IMG/VR virus record: IMGVR_UViG_3300002835_000125
DNA from: an uncultured virus (IMG/VR IMGVR_UViG_3300002835_000125)
Lineage: Duplodnaviria > Heunggongvirae > Uroviricota > Caudoviricetes
Strand: one strand, 5' to 3'
Length of the DNA stretch: 64,000 nucleotides
How positions within the stretch are numbered: the first letter of the stretch is position 1; every line of letters starts with the position of its first letter. Under the pieces are notes generated by a model. It made no database searches, was not told where the DNA came from, and saw only the letters and a list, made by a program, of their open reading frames with translations. Of the stretch, positions 2,357 to 33,104 are shown piece by piece. A program made the position numbers and the translations under genes.

Positions 2357-4088
2357 AGTACGTAAGAATCCTATACAATATAATATACAGTTAGATGAAG
2401 AGCAAAAGGCTGGTAAAGCTATAATTCTTCAATATCCTATTACATTAATTACTGGTCAGGCTGGATGTTTAGGATTAGACACAGAAGTATTAATGTATAA
2501 TGGAACTTTTAAAAAAGTTCAAGATATTGTTGTAGGTGACCAATTAATGGGACCAGATTCTAAGCCTAGAAATGTATTATCTTTATGTAGAGGCATAGAC
2601 CAAATGTATTGGATTAGACAAAATAGAGGAATTGATTATAGAGTTAATAGTAATCATATACTATCATTAATAAGAGTTCAAACTGCAAAATATCCAAGAA
2701 TTGCAGTTGATGGTGTAAGAAAACAAGATTTTTCAAGACCTCCTATTCATCCTAAAAAGGAAACAGTTACAAATATAGAAGTTAATAGATATTTTGATTT
2801 GGGTTCTAAAAAACAATATATGGGATATATTTCAAATTGTCTTTTCTTTGAAGAAAAGAATTTATCAATTGACCCATATTATTTAGGACTTTGGTTAGGA
2901 GATGGAAGTAAAAATTGTATAAGAGAAATTACAGCAGCAGATTCTGAAATAATAAATTATTTAATTGACAAAGGAGCAAGAGCTAAATTAAATAGTAAAT
3001 ATGCATGGTTATTACCAATAAATTTAGAAACAGTTGAGTCTTTTAAAGATTTATTTTCAATTACAAATTCTTCAAAATTACCTGAAAAATTTATACCTAA
3101 TGATTATTTGTTTAACTCAAAAGAAAATAGATTAAAATTGTTAGCTGGTTTATTAGATAGTGATGGACATTATATAAAAGATGGAAAATATTATGAAATA
3201 ATAGTAAAAAATAAAAGATTAGCAGATAATATAACATTTCTATGTAGAAGTCTTGGTTATAAAACTAATCAAAGAGACAAGAAAGCTAGTATGAAAAGAG
3301 ATGATGGTACTATATATAAATGTATTGTTCAAAGAATATCTATAATGACAGAAGATATTATACCTGTTATTATAGATAGAAAAAAGAATGAAATTGGTTC
3401 TGATTTTAAAAATAGAAAATACACAGGATTCAAAATAGAAAAAGATATTATTGATAATTACTATGGGTTTACACTTGATGAAGATAATCTTTTTTTATTA
3501 AAGGACTTAACCGTTACTCATAATTCAGGTAAAAGTTTAGTTGCTCTACAGACTGGATTGGATTTTGTTAATAGTAAGATGGGTAAGATGGTATTAACAC
3601 GTTCTTTAGTAGAGGTTGGAGATGAATCAATGGGTTATTTACCCGGAGATGCTAAAGAAAAGTTAAGTCCTTATTTAGAAGCAGCAATGGAGAATCTTGA
3701 GAAATGTATGTCAAGACAAGAGATTTTAAAGCTTGTTAATGATAATAGGATTGTTGCTGGTCCTGTAAACTTCATGAGAGGTAAGACTGTAGAGGATGTG
3801 CTTATTGTAGAAGAGGGACAAAATCTTACTATAGGACAGATGTTAGCAGTTTTAACAAGAACTGGTAAGGAGGGTAAGATTATTATTACTGGTGACTTGG
3901 CTCAAAAGGATAGAAGAAAGGAAAGAAGTTATGGAGCATTGGACTTAGCAATTGATTTAGCTAAGGACTTACCTGAATATATAGGATGGGTAAAACTTAA
4001 TGGTCAGCATAGACATGATGTGGTTAGTAAGATAAATGACTTAATTTATTCTGATAAATATAAAAATAGGGTATTCCCTGAAAACTAA
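2340..4088 (+). CDS. phoH: PhoH-like ATPase interrupted by an intein
   Basis: Walker A GQAG|SGKS split by intein; PhoH motifs MGYLPGDAKEK, FMRGKT, VEEGQN, VLTRTG, ITGDLAQKD, HRH. Confidence 0.93.
   Translation: MKEPNRVRKNPIQYNIQLDEEQKAGKAIILQYPITLITGQAGCLGLDTEVLMYNGTFKKVQDIVVGDQLMGPDSKPRNVLSLCRGIDQMYWIRQNRGIDYRVNSNHILSLIRVQTAKYPRIAVDGVRKQDFSRPPIHPKKETVTNIEVNRYFDLGSKKQYMGYISNCLFFEEKNLSIDPYYLGLWLGDGSKNCIREITAADSEIINYLIDKGARAKLNSKYAWLLPINLETVESFKDLFSITNSSKLPEKFIPNDYLFNSKENRLKLLAGLLDSDGHYIKDGKYYEIIVKNKRLADNITFLCRSLGYKTNQRDKKASMKRDDGTIYKCIVQRISIMTEDIIPVIIDRKKNEIGSDFKNRKYTGFKIEKDIIDNYYGFTLDEDNLFLLKDLTVTHNSGKSLVALQTGLDFVNSKMGKMVLTRSLVEVGDESMGYLPGDAKEKLSPYLEAAMENLEKCMSRQEILKLVNDNRIVAGPVNFMRGKTVEDVLIVEEGQNLTIGQMLAVLTRTGKEGKIIITGDLAQKDRRKERSYGALDLAIDLAKDLPEYIGWVKLNGQHRHDVVSKINDLIYSDKYKNRVFPEN
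2466..3524 (+). mobile_element. intein (353 aa) with LAGLIDADG homing endonuclease
   Basis: Starts CLGLDTEVLMYNG, ends VTHN followed by Ser; internal LGLWLGDG and LLAGLLDSDG motifs. Confidence 0.93.
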
Positions 4089-24756: not shown

Positions 24757-25902
24757 ATGGCTTGTAGTCCTTATAATCCTTGTCACACACCAACTTGTGA
24801 CACATGTAATACAGTAAATCCTTGTTATGACAATTGTGGTTGTTTAAATCCAACTACATTTGATTGTATAACAAATTTCAAAAAAGCATATAACAATATC
24901 CCTTTAGAAATAAATGCTACAGGGCAAGATATGCTTGATAATCTTGATGAAACAGTAGCTGAAATAGAAAGTAATCTATATAAAGTAAAGGTGGATGATA
25001 GTGATACTTGTCCTGATACACTCTTAGATAAGATTACAGCAGGTAGCAATATTACAGTATCTGTAGCAGGAAGTGGATGTAATAGAAAACTTACTATAAC
25101 AGCAGGGAATGGTATAACAACTGCTCCTGATATATATGCTAAAGTTTCATCTAATGACACTACATCTGATTATCTTGGTAATAAATTTGTAGATGGTACA
25201 TATGTTAAGAAATCTGTAAATAGTCCCGGTGGAAATGAAACAATTGATTTTGACATTACAATAGCTGATTTAATCTCTACTGATAGTGGAAACCAATTAG
25301 GACAAGGAGTAGATGGTAAATTAAAAACTTTGTTCTCTGCACCTGATGGTTCTGAAACTAAAATTAACCCTGTTGCAAATTCTGGAATTACCCTAACTGG
25401 TACAGGTACTAATGGTGACCCTTATCTTATAGGAACTAATGGAGCATTATTTGCTGTTCAACCATATACAGATGGTGTATGGAGAACATTAACCTTTAAC
25501 AATGGTAGCAATGCTAATGTGACACTTAATTCTCAATCTGTTAAATATCGTATGAGATACGATGGTTCTGTAGAGTTTAAAGGAAGCTTAAATTATAGTG
25601 TAACATTCAATGTAGCAAGTACTAATAAGATAGCTATAACAGCAGCTAACATCACTACAGGAGGCTCAACAAACCTTCCTTCAACAGCCTTTGATAGGGT
25701 TGCTAATCTAAGACATTATATGACGTTCAGTAGCCCTAATACAATAAGTGCTACACCAAAATTAACAGGTTATAATGTAAACATATTAGCTGCTGCTTTA
25801 AATAGTCCAGCACCAATTCAAATAGAATTTATGAATGACACTGCTGAAACTAAAAATATAGTAGTAACAATGGATGGAGCAATATATCATCCTAATATTT
25901 AA
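24757..25902 (+). CDS. putative tail fibre protein
   Basis: Cys-rich N-terminus; repeated KV...DT...L..K units; ISTDSGNQLGQGVDGKL; beta-rich head domain. Confidence 0.65.
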   Translation: MACSPYNPCHTPTCDTCNTVNPCYDNCGCLNPTTFDCITNFKKAYNNIPLEINATGQDMLDNLDETVAEIESNLYKVKVDDSDTCPDTLLDKITAGSNITVSVAGSGCNRKLTITAGNGITTAPDIYAKVSSNDTTSDYLGNKFVDGTYVKKSVNSPGGNETIDFDITIADLISTDSGNQLGQGVDGKLKTLFSAPDGSETKINPVANSGITLTGTGTNGDPYLIGTNGALFAVQPYTDGVWRTLTFNNGSNANVTLNSQSVKYRMRYDGSVEFKGSLNYSVTFNVASTNKIAITAANITTGGSTNLPSTAFDRVANLRHYMTFSSPNTISATPKLTGYNVNILAAALNSPAPIQIEFMNDTAETKNIVVTMDGAIYHPNI

Positions 25903-25953
25903 GAATTTAGAAAGAACGTAGCTTTTTTTGGTTTTTGCTGCATATGTTTTTCG

Positions 25954-25975
25954 GAGCCGTTCTCGGCTCTTTTTT
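25954..25975 (+). terminator. intrinsic terminator
   Basis: GAGCCG-TTCT-CGGCTC plus T6. Confidence 0.85.
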
Positions 25976-26010
25976 CTTTTTATTAACATTTTAAATTGTA
26001 ATTTTGTATT

Positions 26011-26265
26011 ATGATAATAACAGATAACATATTCTATTTAGATAATGGAGTAGAAAGACAAATAAATGTATTTAACGAAAGTGACCCACACTATAGATGT
26101 TTTGAATCAGATGGACAGAAACAAATAATCTTTGGAAGAAGTTCATTTGTAAAAACTGAAAATGGAGAAGTAGATTTCTTCTCTTTAAGCAAAGAAGAAA
26201 AAGATAAATTCTGTAATAACACTAATTTTATAAAAACTTATAAAAAATATGATATACATAGGTAA
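26011..26265 (+). CDS. hypothetical protein (probably leaderless)
   Basis: TAATTTTG at 25999-26006, then 4 nt, then ATG. Confidence 0.7.
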   Translation: MIITDNIFYLDNGVERQINVFNESDPHYRCFESDGQKQIIFGRSSFVKTENGEVDFFSLSKEEKDKFCNNTNFIKTYKKYDIHR

Positions 26266-26312
26266 AGAATTAAGATGTTGGAAACACGTTAACAATGAAT
26301 TAACACAACATA

Positions 26313-26344
26313 TTTGATTATATAAAATTATTACACTATATTAC
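26313..26344 (+). promoter_or_regulatory. promoter of tRNA operon 1
   Basis: TTTG-N20-TATATTAC. Confidence 0.65.
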
Positions 26345-26353
26345 AATATAATT

Positions 26354-26434
26354 ATGAAATACGTAGTAACACATACAACATGTCCACAGTGGTTTACACC
26401 GACAATATCGGGAGGGGCTTTGTATGTATACTAA
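26354..26434 (+). CDS. attenuator leader peptide 1 (MKYVVTHTTCPQWFTPTISGGALYVY)
   Basis: Between promoter and terminator; codons 6-17 encode only T,H,C,P,Q,W,F, the downstream tRNA set. Confidence 0.85.
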   Translation: MKYVVTHTTCPQWFTPTISGGALYVY

Positions 26435-26456
26435 GAAATAGCTGTGTAGTAACATC

Positions 26457-26484
26457 AACCCTCTGAGAAATCGGAGGGTTTTTT
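26457..26484 (+). terminator. attenuator terminator 1
   Basis: AACCCTCTGA-GAAA-TCGGAGGGTT-TTTT; 5' arm can pair alternatively with 26408-26426. Confidence 0.88.
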
Positions 26485-26488
26485 ATTT

Positions 26489-26582
26489 CTAGTTGTGGAC
26501 GAGAGGTTTATGTCATTAGTCTTGGAAACTAATATCTGCACACAGATGGTGTGGGTCAAGGGTTCGACTCCCTTCAACTAGA
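26489..26582 (+). tRNA. tRNA-Pro(TGG), long variable region
   Basis: CTAGTTG/CAACTAG acceptor; TTAGT-CTTGGAA-ACTAA; T arm AAGGG-TTCGACT-CCCTT. Confidence 0.85.
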
Positions 26583-26592
26583 CTTTTAATTT

Positions 26593-26665
26593 GCCTTACG
26601 AAGCTTTTATGGATGAAGTGTACTCTTGTAAAGTACGGAACTGGACTCGATTTCCAGCTAAGGCT
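26593..26665 (+). tRNA. tRNA-Thr(TGT)
   Basis: GCCTTA/TAAGGC; GTACT-CTTGTAA-AGTAC; T arm CTGGA/TCCAG. Confidence 0.85.
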
Positions 26666-26671
26666 CAAATT

Positions 26672-26744
26672 GGAGAAGAAGCTAACTTGGTAGAAGCGTT
26701 AGACTGAAAATCTAAAGGAGTTGGTCCGAAACCAACCTTCTCCG
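26672..26744 (+). tRNA. tRNA-Phe(GAA)
   Basis: GGAGAAG/CTTCTCC; TTAGA-CTGAAAA-TCTAA. Confidence 0.92.
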
Positions 26745-26746
26745 CT

Positions 26747-26821
26747 AAATACTTAATGAAACAATAAAGGAACAAAGGGGTCCGGGTAGAAATACGTTAG
26801 CGCCCATTGATTTAAGTATTT
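26747..26821 (+). ncRNA. unknown structured RNA in tRNA operon 1
   Basis: 10 bp closing stem AAATACTTAA/TTAAGTATTT; inner CAAT/ATTG, GGG/CCC, GTA-GAAA-TAC. Confidence 0.5.
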
Positions 26822-26826
26822 TTTAT

Positions 26827-26898
26827 TCCTATGTGGTGTAATGTAACATCCACGCCTTTGAAGCGTTGAGATTGGTGGTTCAAGTCCATCTATAGGAA
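26827..26898 (+). tRNA. tRNA-Gln(TTG)
   Basis: TCCTATG/TATAGGA; ACGC-CTTTGAA-GCGT; GGTGG-TTCAAGT-CCATC. Confidence 0.88.
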
Positions 26899-26900
26899 CT

Positions 26901-26975
26901 GTCTAAGTGTTCTGACTGGATTCAGATGAATGACTGTGAATTATTCAAAAAGGGTTCGAATCCCACTTAGACCCA
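26901..26975 (+). tRNA. tRNA-His(GTG)
   Basis: GTCTAAG/CTTAGAC; AATGA-CTGTGAA-TTATT; GGG-TTCGAAT-CCC. Confidence 0.85.
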
Positions 26976-26979
26976 ATAT

Positions 26980-27052
26980 ATAGGTACTCATGGCTGGCGT
27001 GATAAACAATCTCCAAAATTGTGATTTGTTGAATCGTTCTCAACTACCTATG
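26980..27052 (+). tRNA. tRNA-Trp(CCA)
   Basis: ATAGGTA/TACCTAT; ACAAT-CTCCAAA-ATTGT; divergent T loop ATCGTTC. Confidence 0.8.
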
Positions 27053-27108
27053 CTTTATAGGTCTATATACCTATATTTATAGATTATAGGTTTTAAAGGC
27101 TATAATTT

Positions 27109-27184
27109 GTCCAGATACCTAATATTGATTTTGGGATAGGTCTGCAACACCTATTAAATATCGGTTTGATTCCGATTCTGGACT
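27109..27184 (+). tRNA. tRNA-Cys(GCA)
   Basis: GTCCAGA/TCTGGAC, U73; TAGGT-CTGCAAC-ACCTA. Confidence 0.85.
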
Positions 27185-27222
27185 CTATTAAAAATAAATT
27201 TTTTTATTTGAAAAAGATTTCG

Positions 27223-27230
27223 TATATTTG
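27223..27230 (+). promoter_or_regulatory. -7 element of tRNA operon 2 promoter
   Basis: TATATTTG, canonical TAnnTTTG. Confidence 0.7.
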
Positions 27231-27255
27231 CTGTATAAATAATAAACATTCAACA

Positions 27256-27336
27256 ATGCAACTTATAAATATGATAGTGGATAACGGTATTGGAGCAAAC
27301 GAGAAGTTTGGCTTCAGGTATTCTATTGTCGTATAA
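27256..27336 (+). CDS. attenuator leader peptide 2 (MQLINMIVDNGIGANEKFGFRYSIVV)
   Basis: Codons 4-17 encode only I,N,M,V,D,G,A,E,K, the downstream tRNA set. Confidence 0.85.
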   Translation: MQLINMIVDNGIGANEKFGFRYSIVV

Positions 27337-27357
27337 TTACTTACTAACCCGATAAAG

Positions 27358-27388
27358 AATCCTGAGGCCCATCGCTTCGGGATTTTTT
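27358..27388 (+). terminator. attenuator terminator 2
   Basis: AATCCTGAGGC-CCATC-GCTTCGGGATT-TTTT; 27350-27369 can pair alternatively with 27310-27331. Confidence 0.88.
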
Positions 27389-27392
27389 GTTT

Positions 27393-27467
27393 AATCTCGT
27401 AGCAAAATGTGGCTTTGCTTCAGCCTTTTAAGCTGACTAAAAATGGGTTCGACTCCCATCGGGATTA
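27393..27467 (+). tRNA. tRNA-Lys(TTT)
   Basis: AATCTCG/CGGGATT; TCAGC-CTTTTAA-GCTGA. Confidence 0.9.
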
Positions 27468-27473
27468 CTAAAT

Positions 27474-27546
27474 GGCTCTTTAGCTCAGTGGTAGAGCTTC
27501 GTTTTTACATGACGAGAAAGCACTTGTCCGATTCAAGTAAGAGCTA
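27474..27546 (+). tRNA. tRNA-Val(TAC)
   Basis: GGCTCTT/AAGAGCT; TCGTT-TTTACAT-GACGA. Confidence 0.88.
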
Positions 27547-27547
27547 C

Positions 27548-27877
27548 ATGAAATATATATTAGGAATACTGTTCTTATTAATTATAGGAACAGCAACAAA
27601 AACAGGAATTGCAAGTTATTATCATAACAAGTTTCAAGGAAGGAAAACTGCTAGTGGTGAATTATATGATAAACATAAATTAACAGCAGCTTCTAATCAA
27701 TATAAACTTGGTGATAGTGTAAGAGTAACAAATACTAAGAATGGTAAAAGTGTAAATGTTACAGTAAATGACCGTATGGCTAATAATGGAAGACTAATTG
27801 ATTTAAGTAGAAGTGCTGCTGATAGTCTTGGTTTTATTAAGGATGGTTTAGTTGTAGTTAAAGTTAGTATATTATAA
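27548..27877 (+). CDS. rlpA: RlpA-family lytic transglycosylase (DPBB domain) with hydrophobic N-terminus
   Basis: GIASYY...GRKTASGE.YD...LTAA...VRVTN..NGKSV.V.VNDR...RLIDLSRSAA; start revised to 27548 because the track N-terminus overlaps two tRNAs. Confidence 0.92.
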   Translation: MKYILGILFLLIIGTATKTGIASYYHNKFQGRKTASGELYDKHKLTAASNQYKLGDSVRVTNTKNGKSVNVTVNDRMANNGRLIDLSRSAADSLGFIKDGLVVVKVSIL

Positions 27878-27882
27878 ATATC

Positions 27883-27956
27883 TGTTTTGTAGCTCAGTGG
27901 CCTAGAGCGTGAAGCTGTTAACTTCAGGGTCGTGGGTTCGAATCCCATCAGGACAG
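27883..27956 (+). tRNA. tRNA-Asn(GTT)
   Basis: TGTTTTG/CAGGACA; TGAAG-CTGTTAA-CTTCA. Confidence 0.93.
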
Positions 27957-27961
27957 CATAT

Positions 27962-28046
27962 TGTGGGATGGTGTAATTGGTAACACGCAAGGCTCATAAC
28001 CTTGAGACAGAAAATGCTAGCAAGGGTTCGAATCCCTTTCCCGCAA
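27962..28046 (+). tRNA. tRNA-Met(CAT), initiator-like acceptor, long variable loop
   Basis: TGTGGGA/TCCCGCA; CAAGG-CTCATAA-CCTTG; 17 nt variable region. Confidence 0.85.
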
Positions 28047-28051
28047 CACAA

Positions 28052-28124
28052 GCAGTATAGGCAGATTGGCTTATGCACCTCACTTCCAATGAGGACATGG
28101 TGGGTTCGATTCCTACATGCTGCA
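28052..28124 (+). tRNA. tRNA-Gly(TCC)
   Basis: GCAGTAT/ATGCTGC; CCTCA-CTTCCAA-TGAGG. Confidence 0.9.
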
Positions 28125-28171
28125 CAAAAATTATATTATGAAAAATTCTTTAAAAGAAGGTGAAGAGATAT

Positions 28172-28244
28172 ACTCTCATCTTCTAGTTGGTCAGGATAAC
28201 ACACTTTCAATGTGTTGACACGGGTTCAAGCCCCGTTGGGAGTG
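28172..28244 (+). tRNA. tRNA-Glu(TTC)
   Basis: ACTCTCA/TGGGAGT; ACACA-CTTTCAA-TGTGT. Confidence 0.9.
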
Positions 28245-28254
28245 CTTTAAAAAT

Positions 28255-28328
28255 GGTAGATGGGTCTGCTGGATGAAGATGTCGGTCTGTCGAACCGAAG
28301 ATGATGGGTTTGAATCCCATATCTACCG
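28255..28328 (+). tRNA. tRNA-Asp(GTC)
   Basis: GGTAGAT/ATCTACC, G73; TCGGT-CTGTCGA-ACCGA. Confidence 0.88.
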
Positions 28329-28333
28329 CATTA

Positions 28334-28408
28334 GGACTTGTAGCCAAGTTGGTAAAGGCCCTTGACTCATAATCAAGAGATGCAATGGTTCGAGACCATT
28401 CAAGTCCA
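28334..28408 (+). tRNA. tRNA with CAT anticodon, probably Ile2 (lysidine, reads AUA)
   Basis: GGACTTG/CAAGTCC; CTTGA-CTCATAA-TCAAG resembles bacterial Ile2; leader 2 has two ATA codons. Confidence 0.8.
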
Positions 28409-28413
28409 CATAT

Positions 28414-28485
28414 AGGAATATAGTAGAAGGGTTATCACAATTGACTGATACTCAATTAATATAGGTTCGAATCCTATTGTTCCTA
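28414..28485 (+). tRNA. tRNA-Ile(GAT)
   Basis: AGGAATA/TGTTCCT; ATTGA-CTGATAC-TCAAT. Confidence 0.9.
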
Positions 28486-28490
28486 CATTT

Positions 28491-28563
28491 GGGGATAAAG
28501 CTCTAGCGGATGAGCATCTGCCTTGCACGTAGAAGGTTACGATTTCGAGTGTCGTTATCTCCA
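28491..28563 (+). tRNA. tRNA-Ala(TGC)
   Basis: GGGGATA/TATCTCC with G3-U70; TCTGC-CTTGCAC-GTAGA. Confidence 0.9.
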
Positions 28564-28585
28564 CATAGGGGTTCGGAAAATAATT

Positions 28586-28623
28586 AGCTACATCTCTTTA
28601 TTAATAAGGGTTGTAGCTTTTTT
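28586..28623 (+). terminator. terminator ending tRNA operon 2
   Basis: AGCTACA...TGTAGCT stem plus T tract. Confidence 0.75.
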
Positions 28624-28664
28624 ATTGTCTCAAATATTGTAATAATTTGCGACATAATTTATTT

Positions 28665-28695
28665 TTTGTCAGGTTATAACCTTTCTTTATCTTTG
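28665..28695 (+). promoter_or_regulatory. Bacteroidota sigma-A type promoter
   Basis: TTTG-N19-TATCTTTG. Confidence 0.75.
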
Positions 28696-28699
28696 TTTT

Positions 28700-28867
28700 A
28701 TGAATTGGCATATACTACCTGTAAATGATATAGAATATCATGAAGAATCTACCACTTGTAAGTGTGAACCACAAGTAGAATTTATAGAAGGAGATATGCT
28801 AATTATACAAAACTCTTTTGATGGTAGAGAAGGAGTTGAATGGGTAAATGAAATTTTAAATAAATAA
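28700..28867 (+). CDS. small His/Cys-containing phage protein (55 aa; not in track)
   Basis: MNWHILPVNDIEYHEESTTCKCEPQVEFIEGDMLIIHNSFDGREGVEWVNEILNK; has its own promoter. Confidence 0.8.
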   Translation: MNWHILPVNDIEYHEESTTCKCEPQVEFIEGDMLIIQNSFDGREGVEWVNEILNK

Positions 28868-28899
28868 TTTGGAAAATTCAAAATAATTTCGTATATTTG
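28868..28899 (+). promoter_or_regulatory. promoter of tRNA operon 3
   Basis: TTTG-N20-TATATTTG, perfect consensus. Confidence 0.85.
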
Positions 28900-28903
28900 C
28901 TTT

Positions 28904-28972
28904 ATGAAAACATTATCACTATATAGTTCCTCAAGTTATCTCTTATTAAGAGACAGGGATTGTATTGTGTAA
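28904..28972 (+). CDS. attenuator leader peptide 3 (MKTLSLYSSSSYLLLRDRDCIV)
   Basis: Codons 4-15 encode only L,S,Y, the downstream tRNA set. Confidence 0.88.
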   Translation: MKTLSLYSSSSYLLLRDRDCIV

Positions 28973-29000
28973 ATAGCTATAAGCTTTTAGCTCCCCTAAC

Positions 29001-29032
29001 AATCCCTTGTCTTTCCAGATGAGGGATTTTTT
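29001..29032 (+). terminator. attenuator terminator 3
   Basis: AATCCCTTGTCT-TTCC-AGATGAGGGATT-TTTT; 28999-29012 can pair alternatively with 28951-28963. Confidence 0.88.
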
Positions 29033-29035
29033 ATT

Positions 29036-29108
29036 GGCTCTATGACGTAATCGGCAACCGTCTTGGCTTTAGACCCCAAGTTTTCCAGTTCGAATCTGGA
29101 TAGAGCTA
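29036..29108 (+). tRNA. tRNA-Leu(TAG) lacking a long variable arm
   Basis: GGCTCTA/TAGAGCT, A73; CTTGG-CTTTAGACC-CCAAG centred on TAG; TCCAG-TTCGAAT-CTGGA. Confidence 0.8.
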
Positions 29109-29163
29109 CAAATTAGCAGCCCTCTATGGATAATTCTATTGACGAATAGAATATGGGCAAAAT

Positions 29164-29246
29164 ATTCCTGTGGTGAAATGGTGAGACACGGCAGACTTAA
29201 AATCTGCTACGGAGAAACGTTGCTGGTTCGAATCCAGTCAGGAATA
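29164..29246 (+). tRNA. tRNA-Leu(TAA)
   Basis: ATTCCTG/CAGGAAT; GCAGA-CTTAAAA-TCTGC; variable arm present. Confidence 0.93.
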
Positions 29247-29249
29247 CTT

Positions 29250-29334
29250 AGCAGAATGTCAGAGTGGTTTATTGTGATAGTCTTGAAAACTATTGGGTGT
29301 AAAAGCTCCTTGGGTTCGAATCCCAATTTTGCTG
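29250..29334 (+). tRNA. tRNA-Ser(TGA)
   Basis: AGCAGAA/TTTTGCT, G73; ATAGT-CTTGAAA-ACTAT. Confidence 0.9.
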
Positions 29335-29338
29335 CAAT

Positions 29339-29427
29339 AGAAGATTGTGTGAGTGGCTTAAACAACCAGTTTGCTAAACTGGCGAGGGATTAAAACACCT
29401 CCATTGGTTCAAATCCAATATCTTCTG
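29339..29427 (+). tRNA. tRNA-Ser(GCT)
   Basis: AGAAGAT/ATCTTCT, G73; CCAGT-TTGCTAA-ACTGG. Confidence 0.92.
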
Positions 29428-29432
29428 CATAT

Positions 29433-29525
29433 TGTGTTGTAACGGCAGTAGACTGTAAATCTACTCTGCATAACAAATTGTCGTACTGGTCTCGCAGTAA
29501 GAAGGTTCGAATCCTTTCAACACAA
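29433..29525 (+). tRNA. tRNA-Tyr(GTA), non-canonical (no D-arm in normal position, 36 nt variable region)
   Basis: TGTGTTG/CAACACA, A73; GTAGA-CTGTAAA-TCTAC; GAAGG-TTCGAAT-CCTTT; only 8 nt between acceptor and anticodon arms. Confidence 0.75.
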
Positions 29526-29551
29526 CATTAACTTATTATTAACTATAGACA

Positions 29552-29583
29552 TTTGACTATATAAAGTAAATAGTCTATTTTTG
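29552..29583 (+). promoter_or_regulatory. promoter inside an imperfect palindrome
   Basis: TTTG-N20-TATTTTTG; inverted repeat ATAGAC...GTCTAT spans it. Confidence 0.75.
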
Positions 29584-29587
29584 TATT

Positions 29588-29725
29588 GTACAAATTCCCA
29601 ACCGTCATAGGAGATTTGTATTTAATTAACAATAACTATATATTCGATTGATGTAACTTTGTTCTTAGGAACGCAACTTGACGGTTGGGACCCCTTGTAC
29701 TTAATTGTATGAGGGGATTTTTTTT
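29588..29725 (+). ncRNA. putative small RNA or structured leader with terminator
   Basis: Perfect 12 bp stem 29596-29607/29679-29690; terminator CCCCTTGTAC/GTATGAGGGG plus T tract. Confidence 0.6.
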
Positions 29726-29827
29726 GCAGACATCCGAGGTTTTTCTTTCCTTCTTTTACGTCCTCCACAAAAATAAAAGAGTGTCATTAAGATAGTATAG
29801 TATATTACACTTGGTATATTATATGAT

Positions 29828-30056
29828 AGGATGTAGAAAAATCAGCAATGTCTAAGGTGACAACTGGACCTGAACGAAATTATCAGCAAAAACTACATTC
29901 CTCCGTGAAAAATAAAATCATCTTATAGCTGATAATTATTTGTAGATGATTGGCAGGACATGGGAATCTTAGGTTGACAATATGTTTATAGGAGTATGTG
30001 TTAACTATAAATACATTATCCCAACAGGGGAAGACCTTGTTCAGGATAGACCCCCT
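29828..30056 (+). ncRNA. putative multi-pseudoknot RNA
   Basis: Several hairpins plus three 8-10 bp crossing helices; no credible ORF. Confidence 0.55.
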
Positions 30057-30085
30057 TATGTAAATTAACAATAAAATGTAAAACT

Positions 30086-30391
30086 ATGAAAAACCACAAA
30101 ATGACATCATATCAATTCATGATGTTAATGCAAGAATTACCAAATCCAATGTATTATGCTAGAAATGGAGCTAATGTAGGATTTAGAGTAAAAGTAGGAT
30201 ATTTAAAGAAGTCCATTGATAATACTCCTACAATATTAATAAATCCTAATTCTCAACCTATGAAGATGGCAGAAGTTGAACAGGTAGAATTTGAATTAGT
30301 TCCGAACAATACTATTTGGTATTGGCAACCTGTAGAACCAATTACTATAATAACATTAGATAAGAAAGAGTACATTAAAAATTGGGAATAA
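30086..30391 (+). CDS. hypothetical protein
   Basis: ORF with A-rich start context. Confidence 0.7.
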   Translation: MKNHKMTSYQFMMLMQELPNPMYYARNGANVGFRVKVGYLKKSIDNTPTILINPNSQPMKMAEVEQVEFELVPNNTIWYWQPVEPITIITLDKKEYIKNWE

Positions 30392-30699
30392 TGAATATAA
30401 TAAAATGGTATAAAAGAGTATTTAGAATTCTTACTATAGAAGAATGTAAAGAATTAGGATTAGTACATTCTCATAATATATATGGTGATAGTATTAATCA
30501 TTTAAATTGTAGAAGTATTTGGAAAGATGAAAAGGATAGAACATATAGGTGTGAAAGTTTAATACCTACTATAGGAGTACTAGATTTATGGATTTTAAAA
30601 ATGAAAAATCAAGATAAAGTACAACCAATAACTCAAGAAGAATATAATAAAATAAGAGATGAAGAATTTGAAAGGCTCAAGACTTTATATTCGCCTTAA
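30391..30699 (+). CDS. hypothetical protein (ATG 30391, TAATG coupled)
   Basis: ORF track; NIYGDSINHLNCRSIW motif. Confidence 0.7.
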   Translation: MNIIKWYKRVFRILTIEECKELGLVHSHNIYGDSINHLNCRSIWKDEKDRTYRCESLIPTIGVLDLWILKMKNQDKVQPITQEEYNKIRDEEFERLKTLYSP

Positions 30700-30736
30700 C
30701 AAATAATAGTGTAATTTTGGCTTCTAAATAAAAATC

Positions 30737-31057
30737 ATGAAAGTATTAACAGAAGGACATTATTATGAACTAGAACATTTTGAAAAAGATGAATCGGGTA
30801 GTTCAGAAAGTTTACAATTTATCGAAAAGGTTCCAAAAGGTGAAGGGAAAGTACAAGATTTAGTAACAGTAAATAATGGAACTACAAATGAAGAAGTTCT
30901 TAAAGTTCTAATAAATAGAATGAACTATTTACAAGCAAAATTTCCATGTAGAGAAAATGCTATTGTAATTACAAAACTTGAAGAAAGTCTAATGTGGTTA
31001 GAAAAAAGAACTGTTGATAGAATAGCTAGAAATGTAGAAGGTAAACAATTAAAATAA
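30737..31057 (+). CDS. Tad1/Acb2-like immune signal sponge protein
   Basis: LQF...NGTTNEEVLKVLINRMNYLQAKFPCRENAIVITKLEESLMWLEKRTVDRIARNVEG matches the Tad1 helical hairpin as recalled. Confidence 0.78.
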   Translation: MKVLTEGHYYELEHFEKDESGSSESLQFIEKVPKGEGKVQDLVTVNNGTTNEEVLKVLINRMNYLQAKFPCRENAIVITKLEESLMWLEKRTVDRIARNVEGKQLK

Positions 31058-31065
31058 AATAAACT

Positions 31066-31281
31066 ATGAAAAAACAATTATTTACGTATGCTGTATTATT
31101 CCATCAGCATGAAGAGAAAGAGGGAAAATTGGAATACAAAGAAACACTTATTCTTGTAGAACCAAAAGTGATTTTAGCAAAGAATAGTAATGAAGTAGCA
31201 TTCAAAGCTACAAGAGACGTACCAGAACAATATGCAGGATTTTCAGAAAATGTAGAAATTATAGTACGCCCTTTTAAATAG
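31066..31281 (+). CDS. small conserved phage protein ending VRPFK
   Basis: LFTYAVLFH...VILAK...VEIIVRPF. Confidence 0.75.
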   Translation: MKKQLFTYAVLFHQHEEKEGKLEYKETLILVEPKVILAKNSNEVAFKATRDVPEQYAGFSENVEIIVRPFK

Positions 31282-31291
31282 CTCCCCCTTA

Positions 31292-31471
31292 ATGTGGGAT
31301 AGTGGGAGCAAAGGAGTATGGGAACAATTAGTAGACCCACCTAAATATAAAAGTACTTTCCAAAATTATATGGGTACAACTACAAATTTAGTAGGACAAG
31401 CAATAAACACTTTGACAACAGGAACATCAATATCATATAACATGGCAGATGCAATGTCATTCACAAATTAA
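31292..31471 (+). CDS. hypothetical protein (59 aa; not in track)
   Basis: Open frame filling the gap. Confidence 0.45.
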   Translation: MWDSGSKGVWEQLVDPPKYKSTFQNYMGTTTNLVGQAINTLTTGTSISYNMADAMSFTN

Positions 31472-31480
31472 AATCAAATT

Positions 31481-31645
31481 ATGAAAACACTAACAAATCT
31501 ATTTACAAGCAACCCATCTTACATGAAATGGGGTAATGAAAGAATTGCAAAAAGAACAGGGCTGAAACCAAAAACAGTAGAGAAATTCAAAAAGAATCCC
31601 TTGTATAAGATAATGAAAACCCAATATCTTAACGAGATTAATTAG
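31481..31645 (+). CDS. small HTH-like protein (54 aa; not in track)
   Basis: MKTLTNLFTSNPSYMKWGNERIAKRTGLKPKTVEKFKK...; good start context. Confidence 0.65.
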   Translation: MKTLTNLFTSNPSYMKWGNERIAKRTGLKPKTVEKFKKNPLYKIMKTQYLNEIN

Positions 31646-31695
31646 GAAATGTCGCAAAAAAGGCGTATATTGTTATGATATGCGCTTTTTTATTT

Positions 31696-31767
31696 GGCTC
31701 CTTAGTTAAATGGATATAACCGCAGAATTCTAATCTGCATTTGGGAGTTCGATTCTCTCAGGGGCTA
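31696..31767 (+). tRNA. tRNA-Arg(TCT)
   Basis: GGCTCCT/AGGGGCT; GCAGA-ATTCTAA-TCTGC; GGGAG-TTCGATT-CTCTC. Confidence 0.9.
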
Positions 31768-31787
31768 CGAAATCTTAAAAATAAATT

Positions 31788-33104
31788 ATGATTATAACAC
31801 AAACAATGCAAAAGTTTATTGACAATCCGAAGATGTTAGAGAGTGGATATTGCTCAAAAGCAAAATTAGCTCAAAGACTTGGAACAACAATAGACGATAT
31901 TACAGAATCAAGGTTTAAAGTGAAACAAATGATGTCTTCATTAGACCATGCTCAAGAGTTCTTTAAAGAATTAAAATCAGAAATTGTTAATGAACATACT
32001 ACAAGAGTAGATAATGAAAAGGGTACTATAACATCGGATGTAGAAACTACATTTGAACCCAAGAATGATATTGAATTAGCTGAATTACATAAGATTGATT
32101 TAACAAAATACAAAATAAGTACATATTGGTCTAAACTAAAGAGCAATGGTAAATTCACTTCATCTGTATTAGCTACATTAAGAAATATTGATAAGGATAT
32201 TCCTAAACAAAAAGAATCATTAATAGAAGAAATAGATGAATATTTTGGTAGTAAAAAAGCTATTGAAAATTATAGATTCTTCACAAGAGAAATTGATAAG
32301 GATAGAAAAACTGCTAAAAATACAGATGGTCAACTATTAGAAATATCCATTCCTGATTTACACATTGGTAAAATGTCTCATAGAGAAGAAACAGGGGAAG
32401 ATTATGATTTAAAAATTGCATCTGCAAGATATAAGAATGCTATAACTCAACTATTAAAAACAGCCAATTTAGATAATGTATCTGATATATTACTACCCAT
32501 TGGTAATGACTTGTTCAATGTAGATAATCAGTTCTCAACTACTACAGGTGGTACACCACAGGATTGTGATAGTAGGTTCCACAAGATGGTAGGAGCAGCA
32601 AAAGAACTCCTTATAAATACAATAACAGGGTTAAGTGCATTTGCAAGAGTACATGTTCTTATAGTACCAGGCAATCATGATGAAGTTACAACATTTATGT
32701 TAGGTGAAATATTAGAAGCATGGTTTCATAATGATAGTAACATAACTGTAAATAATACAGCAAAACTTAGAAAATACTTCCAATTTGGAAAGAATTCTTT
32801 CCTTTATACTCATGGAGACAAAGAAAAACATGGGGATTTAGGATTGATATTTGCTACAGAAGAACCTAGACTTTGGGCTGATACTAAATACAGATTTGTA
32901 AAACTTGGTCATCTTCACAAGCAAAAGAAAATAGAATATATAACAACAGACACACTTCAAGGGTTCCAAATAGAAATACTTCCATCACTAAGTTCTGCTG
33001 ATAAGTGGCATTATGGAAAAGGTTTCTTAGGAGCAAAGCAAGCAAAAGCCTATCTCTATGATAAAGAACTTGGGGAAATTGCACAGTATACACACACTGT
33101 TTAA
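31788..33104 (+). CDS. calcineurin-like metallophosphoesterase with N-terminal HTH-like region
   Basis: DLHIG, GND, PGNHD, HGD, GHLH motifs. Confidence 0.88.
   Translation: MIITQTMQKFIDNPKMLESGYCSKAKLAQRLGTTIDDITESRFKVKQMMSSLDHAQEFFKELKSEIVNEHTTRVDNEKGTITSDVETTFEPKNDIELAELHKIDLTKYKISTYWSKLKSNGKFTSSVLATLRNIDKDIPKQKESLIEEIDEYFGSKKAIENYRFFTREIDKDRKTAKNTDGQLLEISIPDLHIGKMSHREETGEDYDLKIASARYKNAITQLLKTANLDNVSDILLPIGNDLFNVDNQFSTTTGGTPQDCDSRFHKMVGAAKELLINTITGLSAFARVHVLIVPGNHDEVTTFMLGEILEAWFHNDSNITVNNTAKLRKYFQFGKNSFLYTHGDKEKHGDLGLIFATEEPRLWADTKYRFVKLGHLHKQKKIEYITTDTLQGFQIEILPSLSSADKWHYGKGFLGAKQAKAYLYDKELGEIAQYTHTV

Follow-up and report, generated by a model that had tools for sequence, protein, structure and literature searches.

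A 26-codon leader ORF and an intrinsic terminator lie directly ahead of a block of seven tRNA genes in a crAss-like lake phage, and twelve consecutive codons of the leader call for the amino acids of these seven tRNAs. We consider it likely that this arrangement is a ribosome-mediated leader-peptide transcription attenuator that heads the tRNA block. Two more units of the same design follow in the window (the whole stretch of DNA that was analysed, 64,000 nt), and the design is also seen in six further phage sequences, including the cultured Cellulophaga phage phi17:2 and Leptolyngbya phage Lbo-JY46. The strongest support for the attenuator is comparative: 13 of 16 units carry matched runs, and homologous leaders change with their blocks. 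The window belongs to an IMG/VR virus record of 155,874 bp that is rated complete. Public sequencing runs containing the stretch were found among lake and freshwater DNA metagenomes, and none among RNA runs. The window encodes a muzzle protein of the crAss type (Pfam crAss_MUZ, 9.5e-18) and gives a weak match to a ring protein, and the phage is therefore regarded as crAss-like.

Leader and tRNA genes of the first unit

The leader ORF (26354-26434, plus strand) begins with an ATG at 26354, ends with a TAA stop codon at 26432-26434 and encodes the 26-codon peptide MKYVVTHTTCPQWFTPTISGGALYVY. It is thus a short, ATG-started ORF directly 5' of tRNA genes. Its regulatory codons are codons 6-17 (26369-26404, plus strand; peptide THTTCPQWFTPT), which read ACA CAT ACA ACA TGT CCA CAG TGG TTT ACA CCG ACA. 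When the sequence was re-read, the ORF, these codons and their positions matched the preliminary description to the base. No Shine-Dalgarno sequence was found before the leader ATG at 26354, and no variants of the leader were found in the contigs of four lake and freshwater DNA runs.

The block behind the leader lies on the same strand. It starts with tRNA-Pro(tgg) (26489-26583, 95 nt; Rfam 52.9 bits), which is followed by a divergent tRNA-Thr(tgt) (26593-26666), tRNA-Phe(gaa) (26672-26745; also found by Rfam), tRNA-Gln(ttg) (26827-26899; also found by Rfam), a divergent tRNA-His(gtg) (26901-26974; Rfam 27.5 bits, below the 29-bit cut-off), a divergent tRNA-Trp(cca) (26976-27053) and, as the last gene, tRNA-Cys(gca) (27109-27185). 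At default settings aragorn calls four of the seven, namely Pro, Phe, Gln and Cys; Thr and His are called at -ps90 and Trp at -ps80. These three tRNAs, seen at relaxed thresholds only, could be defective. The 80-nt gap between tRNA-Phe and tRNA-Gln (26746-26826) gave no tRNA call even at -ps70. Across the window, aragorn at default settings reports 19 tRNAs, and a tRNA gene cluster occupies 26.3-29.6 kb. The variable region of the tRNA-Pro is about 25 nt long, which is unusual for a Pro tRNA; the homologues in Lbo-JY46 and in the IMG/VR contig L160 measure 73-75 nt.

The codon run corresponds closely to this block. All of its 12 residues belong to the set {C,F,H,P,Q,T,W}, and all seven kinds occur in it; the earlier claim that the run presents every downstream specificity therefore holds, with the proviso that three of the tRNAs need relaxed calling. 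In the six frames of the whole 155,874-bp genome, the run is the longest within this set (the runner-up has 9 codons) and the only one of at least 10 codons. Under strict wobble rules the seven anticodons of the block read 12 of the 12 codons, and each of the seven tRNAs has a codon in the run. The Thr and Pro codons of the run are ACA, CCA and CCG only, whereas in the phage at large ACT and CCT are roughly as common as ACA and CCA. Given the codon usage of the phage (ACA+ACG 0.57, CCA+CCG 0.45), the chance that all 12 codons would be readable with the peptide as it stands is about 0.57^5 x 0.45^2 = 0.012. Exact Watson-Crick cognate codons are not in excess in the run (7 of 12 observed against 6.0 expected).

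An 84-codon ORF without a Pfam family (26011-26265, plus strand) lies upstream of the leader. A motif, TAATTTTG (25999-26006), was recognized 4 nt before its ATG by eye, in comparison with the promoters of Lbo-JY46. No terminator was found between this ORF and the leader, and the two are possibly co-transcribed. The canonical promoter TTTG-N20-TAnnTTTG, whose TTTG...TAnnTTTG motif we take to be of the Bacteroidota type, is absent directly before the ATG at 26354, unlike in the third unit. The promoter of the first unit is uncertain, the nearest good motif being the TAATTTTG before the ORF at 26011.

Terminator and predicted competing helices

The intrinsic terminator hairpin (26457-26480, plus strand) has the form AACCCTCTGA-GAAA-TCGGAGGGTT, with 10 pairs, a loop of 4 nt and a T-tract, and a folding energy of -15.2 kcal/mol. 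It stands between the leader and the tRNA genes. The hairpin ends 8 nt before tRNA-Pro, and its T-tract (26481-26488) adjoins this gene. Because no space is left there for a promoter, the tRNAs need readthrough of the terminator.

Two further structures are predicted in the leader RNA. Region 2, the antiterminator strand (26408-26427, plus strand), has the form TCGGGAGGG...TTGTATGT, in which TCGGGAGGG begins at 26408 and TTGTATGT occupies 26420-26427; it mimics the terminator 3' arm. The corresponding downstream elements are ACATCAA (26452-26458), CCCTCTGA (26459-26466) and TCGGAGGG (26471-26478). The preliminary description had proposed that region 2 pairs with the terminator 5' arm and that the helix is extended with ACATCAA. 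Both helices were recovered, and between 26408-26427 and 26451-26466 they jointly reach -9.9 kcal/mol. The best partner of the terminator 5' arm is GGGAGGGG at 26410-26417 (-11.0 kcal/mol), which was equalled in 10 of 300 shuffles. The second structure is a predicted 1:2 helix, or anti-antiterminator (26363-26433, plus strand), in which 26363-26384 pairs with 26414-26433 at -13.5 kcal/mol. It overlaps the regulatory codons and folds alongside the terminator in the full leader.

A translating ribosome was modelled by masking a 31-nt footprint codon by codon, and the nascent RNA was taken as the transcript without the terminator 3' arm. With the A site at codons 2-15, the terminator 5' arm of the nascent RNA is held upstream with a P of 0.59-0.77; with the A site at codons 16-26, the value is 0.10-0.18. 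If no ribosome is present, the 5' arm is sequestered at 0.29 or 0.68, according to the 5' end assumed. A ribosome at the stop codon gives an upstream pairing of P 0.65 and leaves the core GGGAGGG free. In the finished transcript of the first unit, the terminator wins at every ribosome position (P 0.95-0.96).

Two earlier expectations thus stand in part. The nascent RNA shifts as foreseen between codons 2-15 and codons 16-26, but the pairing is kept under the stop-codon footprint. Terminator and antiterminator had been called mutually exclusive. A competing helix does exist in the nascent RNA, but on the full transcript of the first unit the antiterminator, which is the weaker structure (-9.9 to -11.0 against -15.2 kcal/mol), never wins. 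Because the terminator always prevails in the finished transcript, the first-unit switch can work only kinetically. Since the stop-codon footprint leaves the core pairing free, termination during fast reading would rely on timing or steric exclusion.

Units elsewhere in the window and in other phages

The second unit (27218-27385, plus strand) consists of a motif TTTCGTATATTTG at 27218-27230, a leader at 27256-27336 (MQLINMIVDNGIGANEKFGFRYSIVV) and a terminator at 27357-27385. Its block (27393-28564) contains tRNAs for Lys and Val, an ORF with a DPBB domain, and then tRNAs for Asn, Met, Gly, Glu, Asp, Met, Ile and Ala. The leader run INMIVDNGIGANEK comprises residues 4-17, all 14 of which are in the set of the block, and covers nine of nine amino acids. 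The third unit (28868-29028, plus strand) has a promoter-like TTTG-N20-TATATTTG at 28868-28899, a leader at 28904-28972 (MKTLSLYSSSSYLLLRDRDCIV) and a terminator at 29001-29028. The promoter-like match includes an exact copy of the second-unit motif and ends 4 nt before the leader. Its block consists of Leu(tag), Leu(taa), Ser(tga) and Ser(gct) (29036-29428), followed by a Tyr(gta)-like gene (29433-29525), and the run LSLYSSSSYLLL of 12 codons covers three of three residues. If the Tyr-like gene is left out, the longest run falls from 12 to 4. In this gene the acceptor stem, anticodon arm and T arm are perfect, but the D arm is almost absent and 33 nt are inserted; a small Rfam search gives it 34.6 bits, and aragorn makes no call. 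At the matching position L160 has a canonical tRNA-Tyr, in a unit whose leader carries YYSLSLLSSL. When the three leaders and the three blocks of the window are paired in all ways, the own pairing sums to 38 and the five wrong pairings to at most 17.

Some other features were observed in this part of the window. The DPBB_1 ORF of the second block (27548-27877; RlpA-like lytic transglycosylase, 1.9e-17) directly follows tRNA-Val, and an ORF is kept at this position in Lbo-JY46 and apparently also in L160. The tRNA-Met(cat) at 27962-28047 is 86 nt long and has a long variable arm; its counterpart in Lbo-JY46 measures 84 nt. The segment 29552-29725 contains a promoter-like TTTG-N20-TATTTTTG; in the roughly 100 nt that follow, 29597-29607 can pair with 29679-29689 in a long-range stem of 11 bp, and a strong terminator occupies 29691-29716. 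The segment has no ATG-started ORF, tRNA or Rfam match and may encode a small phage RNA. At 31659-31768, a lone tRNA-Arg(tct) at 31696 directly follows a hairpin and T-tract. The 54-codon ORF upstream of it contains two AGA codons and is no obvious leader.

In total, 16 units were collected from seven sequences: three each from the window, Lbo-JY46, L160 and phi17:2, two from L115, and one each from L086 and L103. A run of at least 9 codons matching the unit's own block is found in the front or middle of the leader in 13 of the 16 units; the other three are B3 (8 codons), B2 (7) and F1 (3). In each of the four phages tested, all with at least two units, the true pairing of leaders and blocks is the best of all pairings. 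A partner for the terminator 5' arm was also found in a constant place. Its best partner lies 1-5 codons past the run in all 13 units first scanned, and in 11 of these no more than 13 of 300 shuffles match its pairing; the arm pairing is weak in units C2 (127 of 300) and D2 (33 of 300). In all three L160 units, at most 2 of 300 shuffles do so. This G-rich partner explains the recurring 'SGG/GGT' residues past the runs.

The nearest GenBank relative of the window phage is Lbo-JY46 (L039, PP438436), with 40.8% identity over a 438-aa protein. Its homologous unit has MKITRQHTQFWFPTGTGLGML before Pro, Thr, Phe, Gln, His, Arg(acg) and Trp, and two further units occur in this phage. L160, which was found via a 16-mer of tRNA-Leu, has MNVTRTHTQQFWFPTRAGLGMCDNRG before a block identical to that of Lbo-JY46, and likewise two further units. 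In the first unit of the window, the block includes Cys but lacks Arg, and the leader likewise includes C but lacks R. The blocks of Lbo-JY46 and L160 contain Arg(acg) and no Cys, and their leaders, TRQHTQFWFPT and TRTHTQQFWFPTR, have R in place of C. The leader is therefore conserved in two homologues, and the exchange of R for C tracks the block. The terminator sequence of the window is unrelated to that of its two homologues, and the region 2 partner has changed along with it; a MAFFT alignment of the three homologous leaders did not bring the terminators into register. For Lbo-JY46 a cyanobacterial host is on record, and repeated TTTGGTAG-N20-TAnnTTTG motifs stand 3-9 nt before ATGs in this phage.

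The cultured phage phi17:2 belongs to a different genus (Lightbulbvirus). Its unit 1 has MKIQRLHLQELEQPIISGGTGV before Pro, Glu, Gln, His, Leu, Leu and Arg(acg). Unit 2 has a leader ending in QLTKTGITVIDKTKGARAYLGDTVIG, which is the annotated gp077, before Ala, Lys, Ile, Gly, Met, Asp, Thr, Val, Arg(tct) and Met. Unit 3 has MKTNYCTYNNSNWSFSY... before Tyr, Ser, Ser, Asn, Trp and Phe. In the gp077 and gp078 regions of this phage (L023; 5230-5331 and 3289-3408), gp078 overlaps a tRNA-Ser(tga) found at a relaxed threshold, and this annotated CDS is probably spurious. An unannotated tRNA-Lys(ttt) was also seen at 3625-3697.

L115, L086 and L103 (the last only partial) were found via the promoter pattern. 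The two tRNA blocks of L115 share out the twenty amino acids between them, and its two leaders follow this partition exactly: the runs have 13 codons covering six of six and 23 codons covering 14 of 14. In leader 2 of L115, the two Arg isoacceptors have codons of their own, CGC for Arg(acg) and AGA for Arg(tct), and so do the two Ile isoacceptors, with ATA for Ile(tat) and ATC for Ile(gat). A leader of the first-unit type (MKNLVSRFWHQQTTQPCFTY...) with a terminator was also noticed in L073 (2537-2720). No tRNA gene was detected behind it, and it may be an orphan unit.

The distribution of the design was investigated by further searches. The promoter pattern occurs in at least 117 stretches; 80 loci with 82 matches were examined, eight matches have a tRNA on the same strand within 400 nt, and three of these eight are leader-like. 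The pattern GGCTCTATGACGTAAT gave three loci, two of them without tRNAs. The pattern CCGANNATATCGGGAGG was discarded, since 14 of its 15 loci were chance matches and one was a near-copy of phi17:2. A Val tRNA in Lbo-JY46 and a Cys tRNA in phi17:2 that had been read by eye were dropped for want of aragorn support; without this Val, the third unit of Lbo-JY46 keeps a front run of 8 in place of a run of 17. No close relatives of the window phage were found in the collections searched. The 438-aa protein has 21 IMG/VR loci at 32-37% identity, one of which has a tRNA call (a single Met) and none a cluster. Five whole records were searched, and two of them contained three tRNA matches in total. No relatives were found of the 381-aa and DPBB proteins. 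T5, in which 12 small CDSs were inspected, and the Flavobacterium phage immuto have tRNA genes without the design.

Proposed mechanism, known systems and meaning

The proposed attenuator would act as follows. Transcription from upstream would yield the 26-codon leader. If the run is decoded fast, the leading ribosome would move onto codons 16-26 and cover region 2, TCGGGAGGG...TTGTATGT; the hairpin at 26457-26480 would then form, and RNA polymerase would stop 8 nt short of tRNA-Pro. A shortage of even one of the seven charged tRNAs would instead make the ribosome stall within the run, where it would also disrupt the 1:2 helix. The free region 2 could then capture the terminator 5' arm before the 3' arm exists, and the polymerase would read through into the tRNA genes. 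The tRNA product would relieve the stall, which amounts to negative feedback on tRNA supply. The second and third units of the window would act likewise on the other two tRNA blocks.

The leader had earlier been described as a sensor of Thr, His, Cys, Pro, Gln, Trp and Phe. The attenuator anatomy and the matched run support a sensor with these specificities, but since it is tRNA genes that would be controlled, the supply of charged tRNA (decoding capacity) describes the signal better than amino acids do. The same attenuator might instead report host amino-acid starvation through uncharged tRNA and not tRNA abundance, a reading that we hold to be unlikely. The mechanism could not distinguish low tRNA from low charging, as both slow decoding; classical attenuators report amino-acid supply, and the leader holds the rare and costly Trp, Cys and His. 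However, extra tRNA cannot cure a lack of amino acids, so such feedback would be futile. In addition, isoacceptors are matched and not merely amino acids, as is seen for both Arg and both Ile tRNAs in L115 and for both Leu and both Ser tRNAs in the third unit, and the leaders jointly span nearly all amino acids instead of a metabolic family.

For termination as the output of the switch, the other units of the window are informative. With the ribosome on the run, the second and third units give a P(terminator) of 0.00-0.15 even at equilibrium, so that the antiterminator wins outright. This argues against a small ORF that senses ribosome speed for another output, such as nuclease protection or processing of the precursor, in which the hairpin would be either a terminator of constant leakiness or a signal for processing. 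Such an arrangement would suit the first-unit terminator, which wins thermodynamically in all states, and the position of the hairpin next to the tRNA 5' end, where RNase P cuts. It is nonetheless very improbable, since the 5' arm has a positioned complementary partner just past the run in 16 of 16 units, and this partner changes together with the terminator sequence, which is the signature of an antiterminator.

The proposed attenuator depends on translation of the leader by a ribosome. In 16 of 16 units the run shares the frame of a start codon, which is ATG except for a GTG in one unit, and this frame continues without interruption to a stop codon; promoter motifs stand 3-9 nt upstream of the ATG in those units that the promoter pattern detected. 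The triplets of the run are also complementary to the anticodons of the block, so an untranslated run might bind the tRNAs directly, in the manner of a T-box RNA with many specifiers. In view of these open frames and promoter motifs we give this hardly any credence; twelve adjacent specifiers have no known precedent, and between 25500 and 32500 no T-box (with its stem I specifier loop and T-box sequence) or other non-tRNA regulatory family was found in Rfam at E <= 1. The combination of codon run and small ORF is more than chance; many small ORFs exist in AT-rich phage DNA and the promoter scan of the window barely exceeds shuffles (48 against 39.2), but an ordinary terminator of the upstream gene next to a meaningless small ORF can practically be dismissed, as the run is unique in the genome and the match recurs in three units of the window and, with co-variation, in six other phage sequences.

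The attenuator can be compared with several known systems. In Escherichia coli, trpL, hisL, pheL and the multivalent thrL and ilvL are leader-peptide transcription attenuators of amino-acid operons. In these, helices 1:2, 2:3 and 3:4 alternate, 3:4 being the intrinsic terminator, and stalling on the run leads to readthrough; the terminator is more stable than the antiterminator, so that control is kinetic, as in the trp leader. The phage units resemble them in the short leader with relevant codons, the predicted alternating helices and, for the first unit, the kinetic control proposed here. They differ in residing in phages, in having tRNA genes as targets instead of enzymes, and in their runs: leaders of amino-acid operons repeat one to three amino acids, whereas the phage runs list up to 14, with at least one codon per downstream tRNA. 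Several phage leaders also seem to begin at or within a few bases of the transcript 5' end, unlike those of amino-acid operons. The Rfam leader families for His, Thr, Trp, Leu and Phe gave no match in 25500-32500, where only tRNAs and three weak unrelated matches were reported.

Other systems share single aspects of the design. The pheM leader attenuator of E. coli controls pheST, which encodes phenylalanyl-tRNA synthetase, by charged tRNA; as is proposed for the phage units, a leader peptide controls a gene of the decoding apparatus, but pheM involves one amino acid and a protein-coding target, is cellular, and does not have tRNA as its product. T-boxes act without a ribosome and make direct contact with a single uncharged tRNA, using a specifier codon and a conserved T-box sequence. 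Like the proposed phage attenuator, they connect the state of tRNA with a terminator/antiterminator switch upstream of genes involved in translation. Attenuators with an upstream ORF of the ermC, cat and whiB7 type sense translation stress and respond to drugs or to a stalling peptide. There, as is proposed for the phage leader, a ribosome stalled on a small ORF remodels the downstream RNA, but only in the phage leader does the codon list match the regulated genes. Among themselves, the units of phi17:2, Lbo-JY46, L160, L115, L086 and L103 have a common build with that of the window, each with its own matched run; their tRNA blocks are cut differently, so the compositions of the leaders differ, and their terminator sequences are unrelated. 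In the literature outside subscription journals, no description of such control for tRNA genes was found. What is new is the phage tRNA gene as the target, and the 'barcode' leader that lists every tRNA of its block.

In sum, we lean towards the view that phages of several unrelated lineages carry codon-barcoded sensors that measure decoding capacity species by species and switch on only the block that is needed, forming an autoregulated circuit of tRNA homeostasis. Such a circuit could also serve as an alarm and counter-measure where tRNAs are destroyed by the host or by the phage itself, for instance by anticodon nucleases or in host shut-off. Why and when phages use their tRNA genes is a long-standing question. 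If the proposed attenuator operates, tRNA supply would be actively measured and corrected during infection, and the units would provide a direct and testable read-out of the limiting tRNAs. The logic of trp-type attenuation would be extended to stable-RNA genes through a leader that serves as a barcode of many amino acids, and a natural compact design for decoding-capacity sensors would be at hand. As a cultured system with this design exists in Cellulophaga baltica and phi17:2, the idea is testable at the bench.
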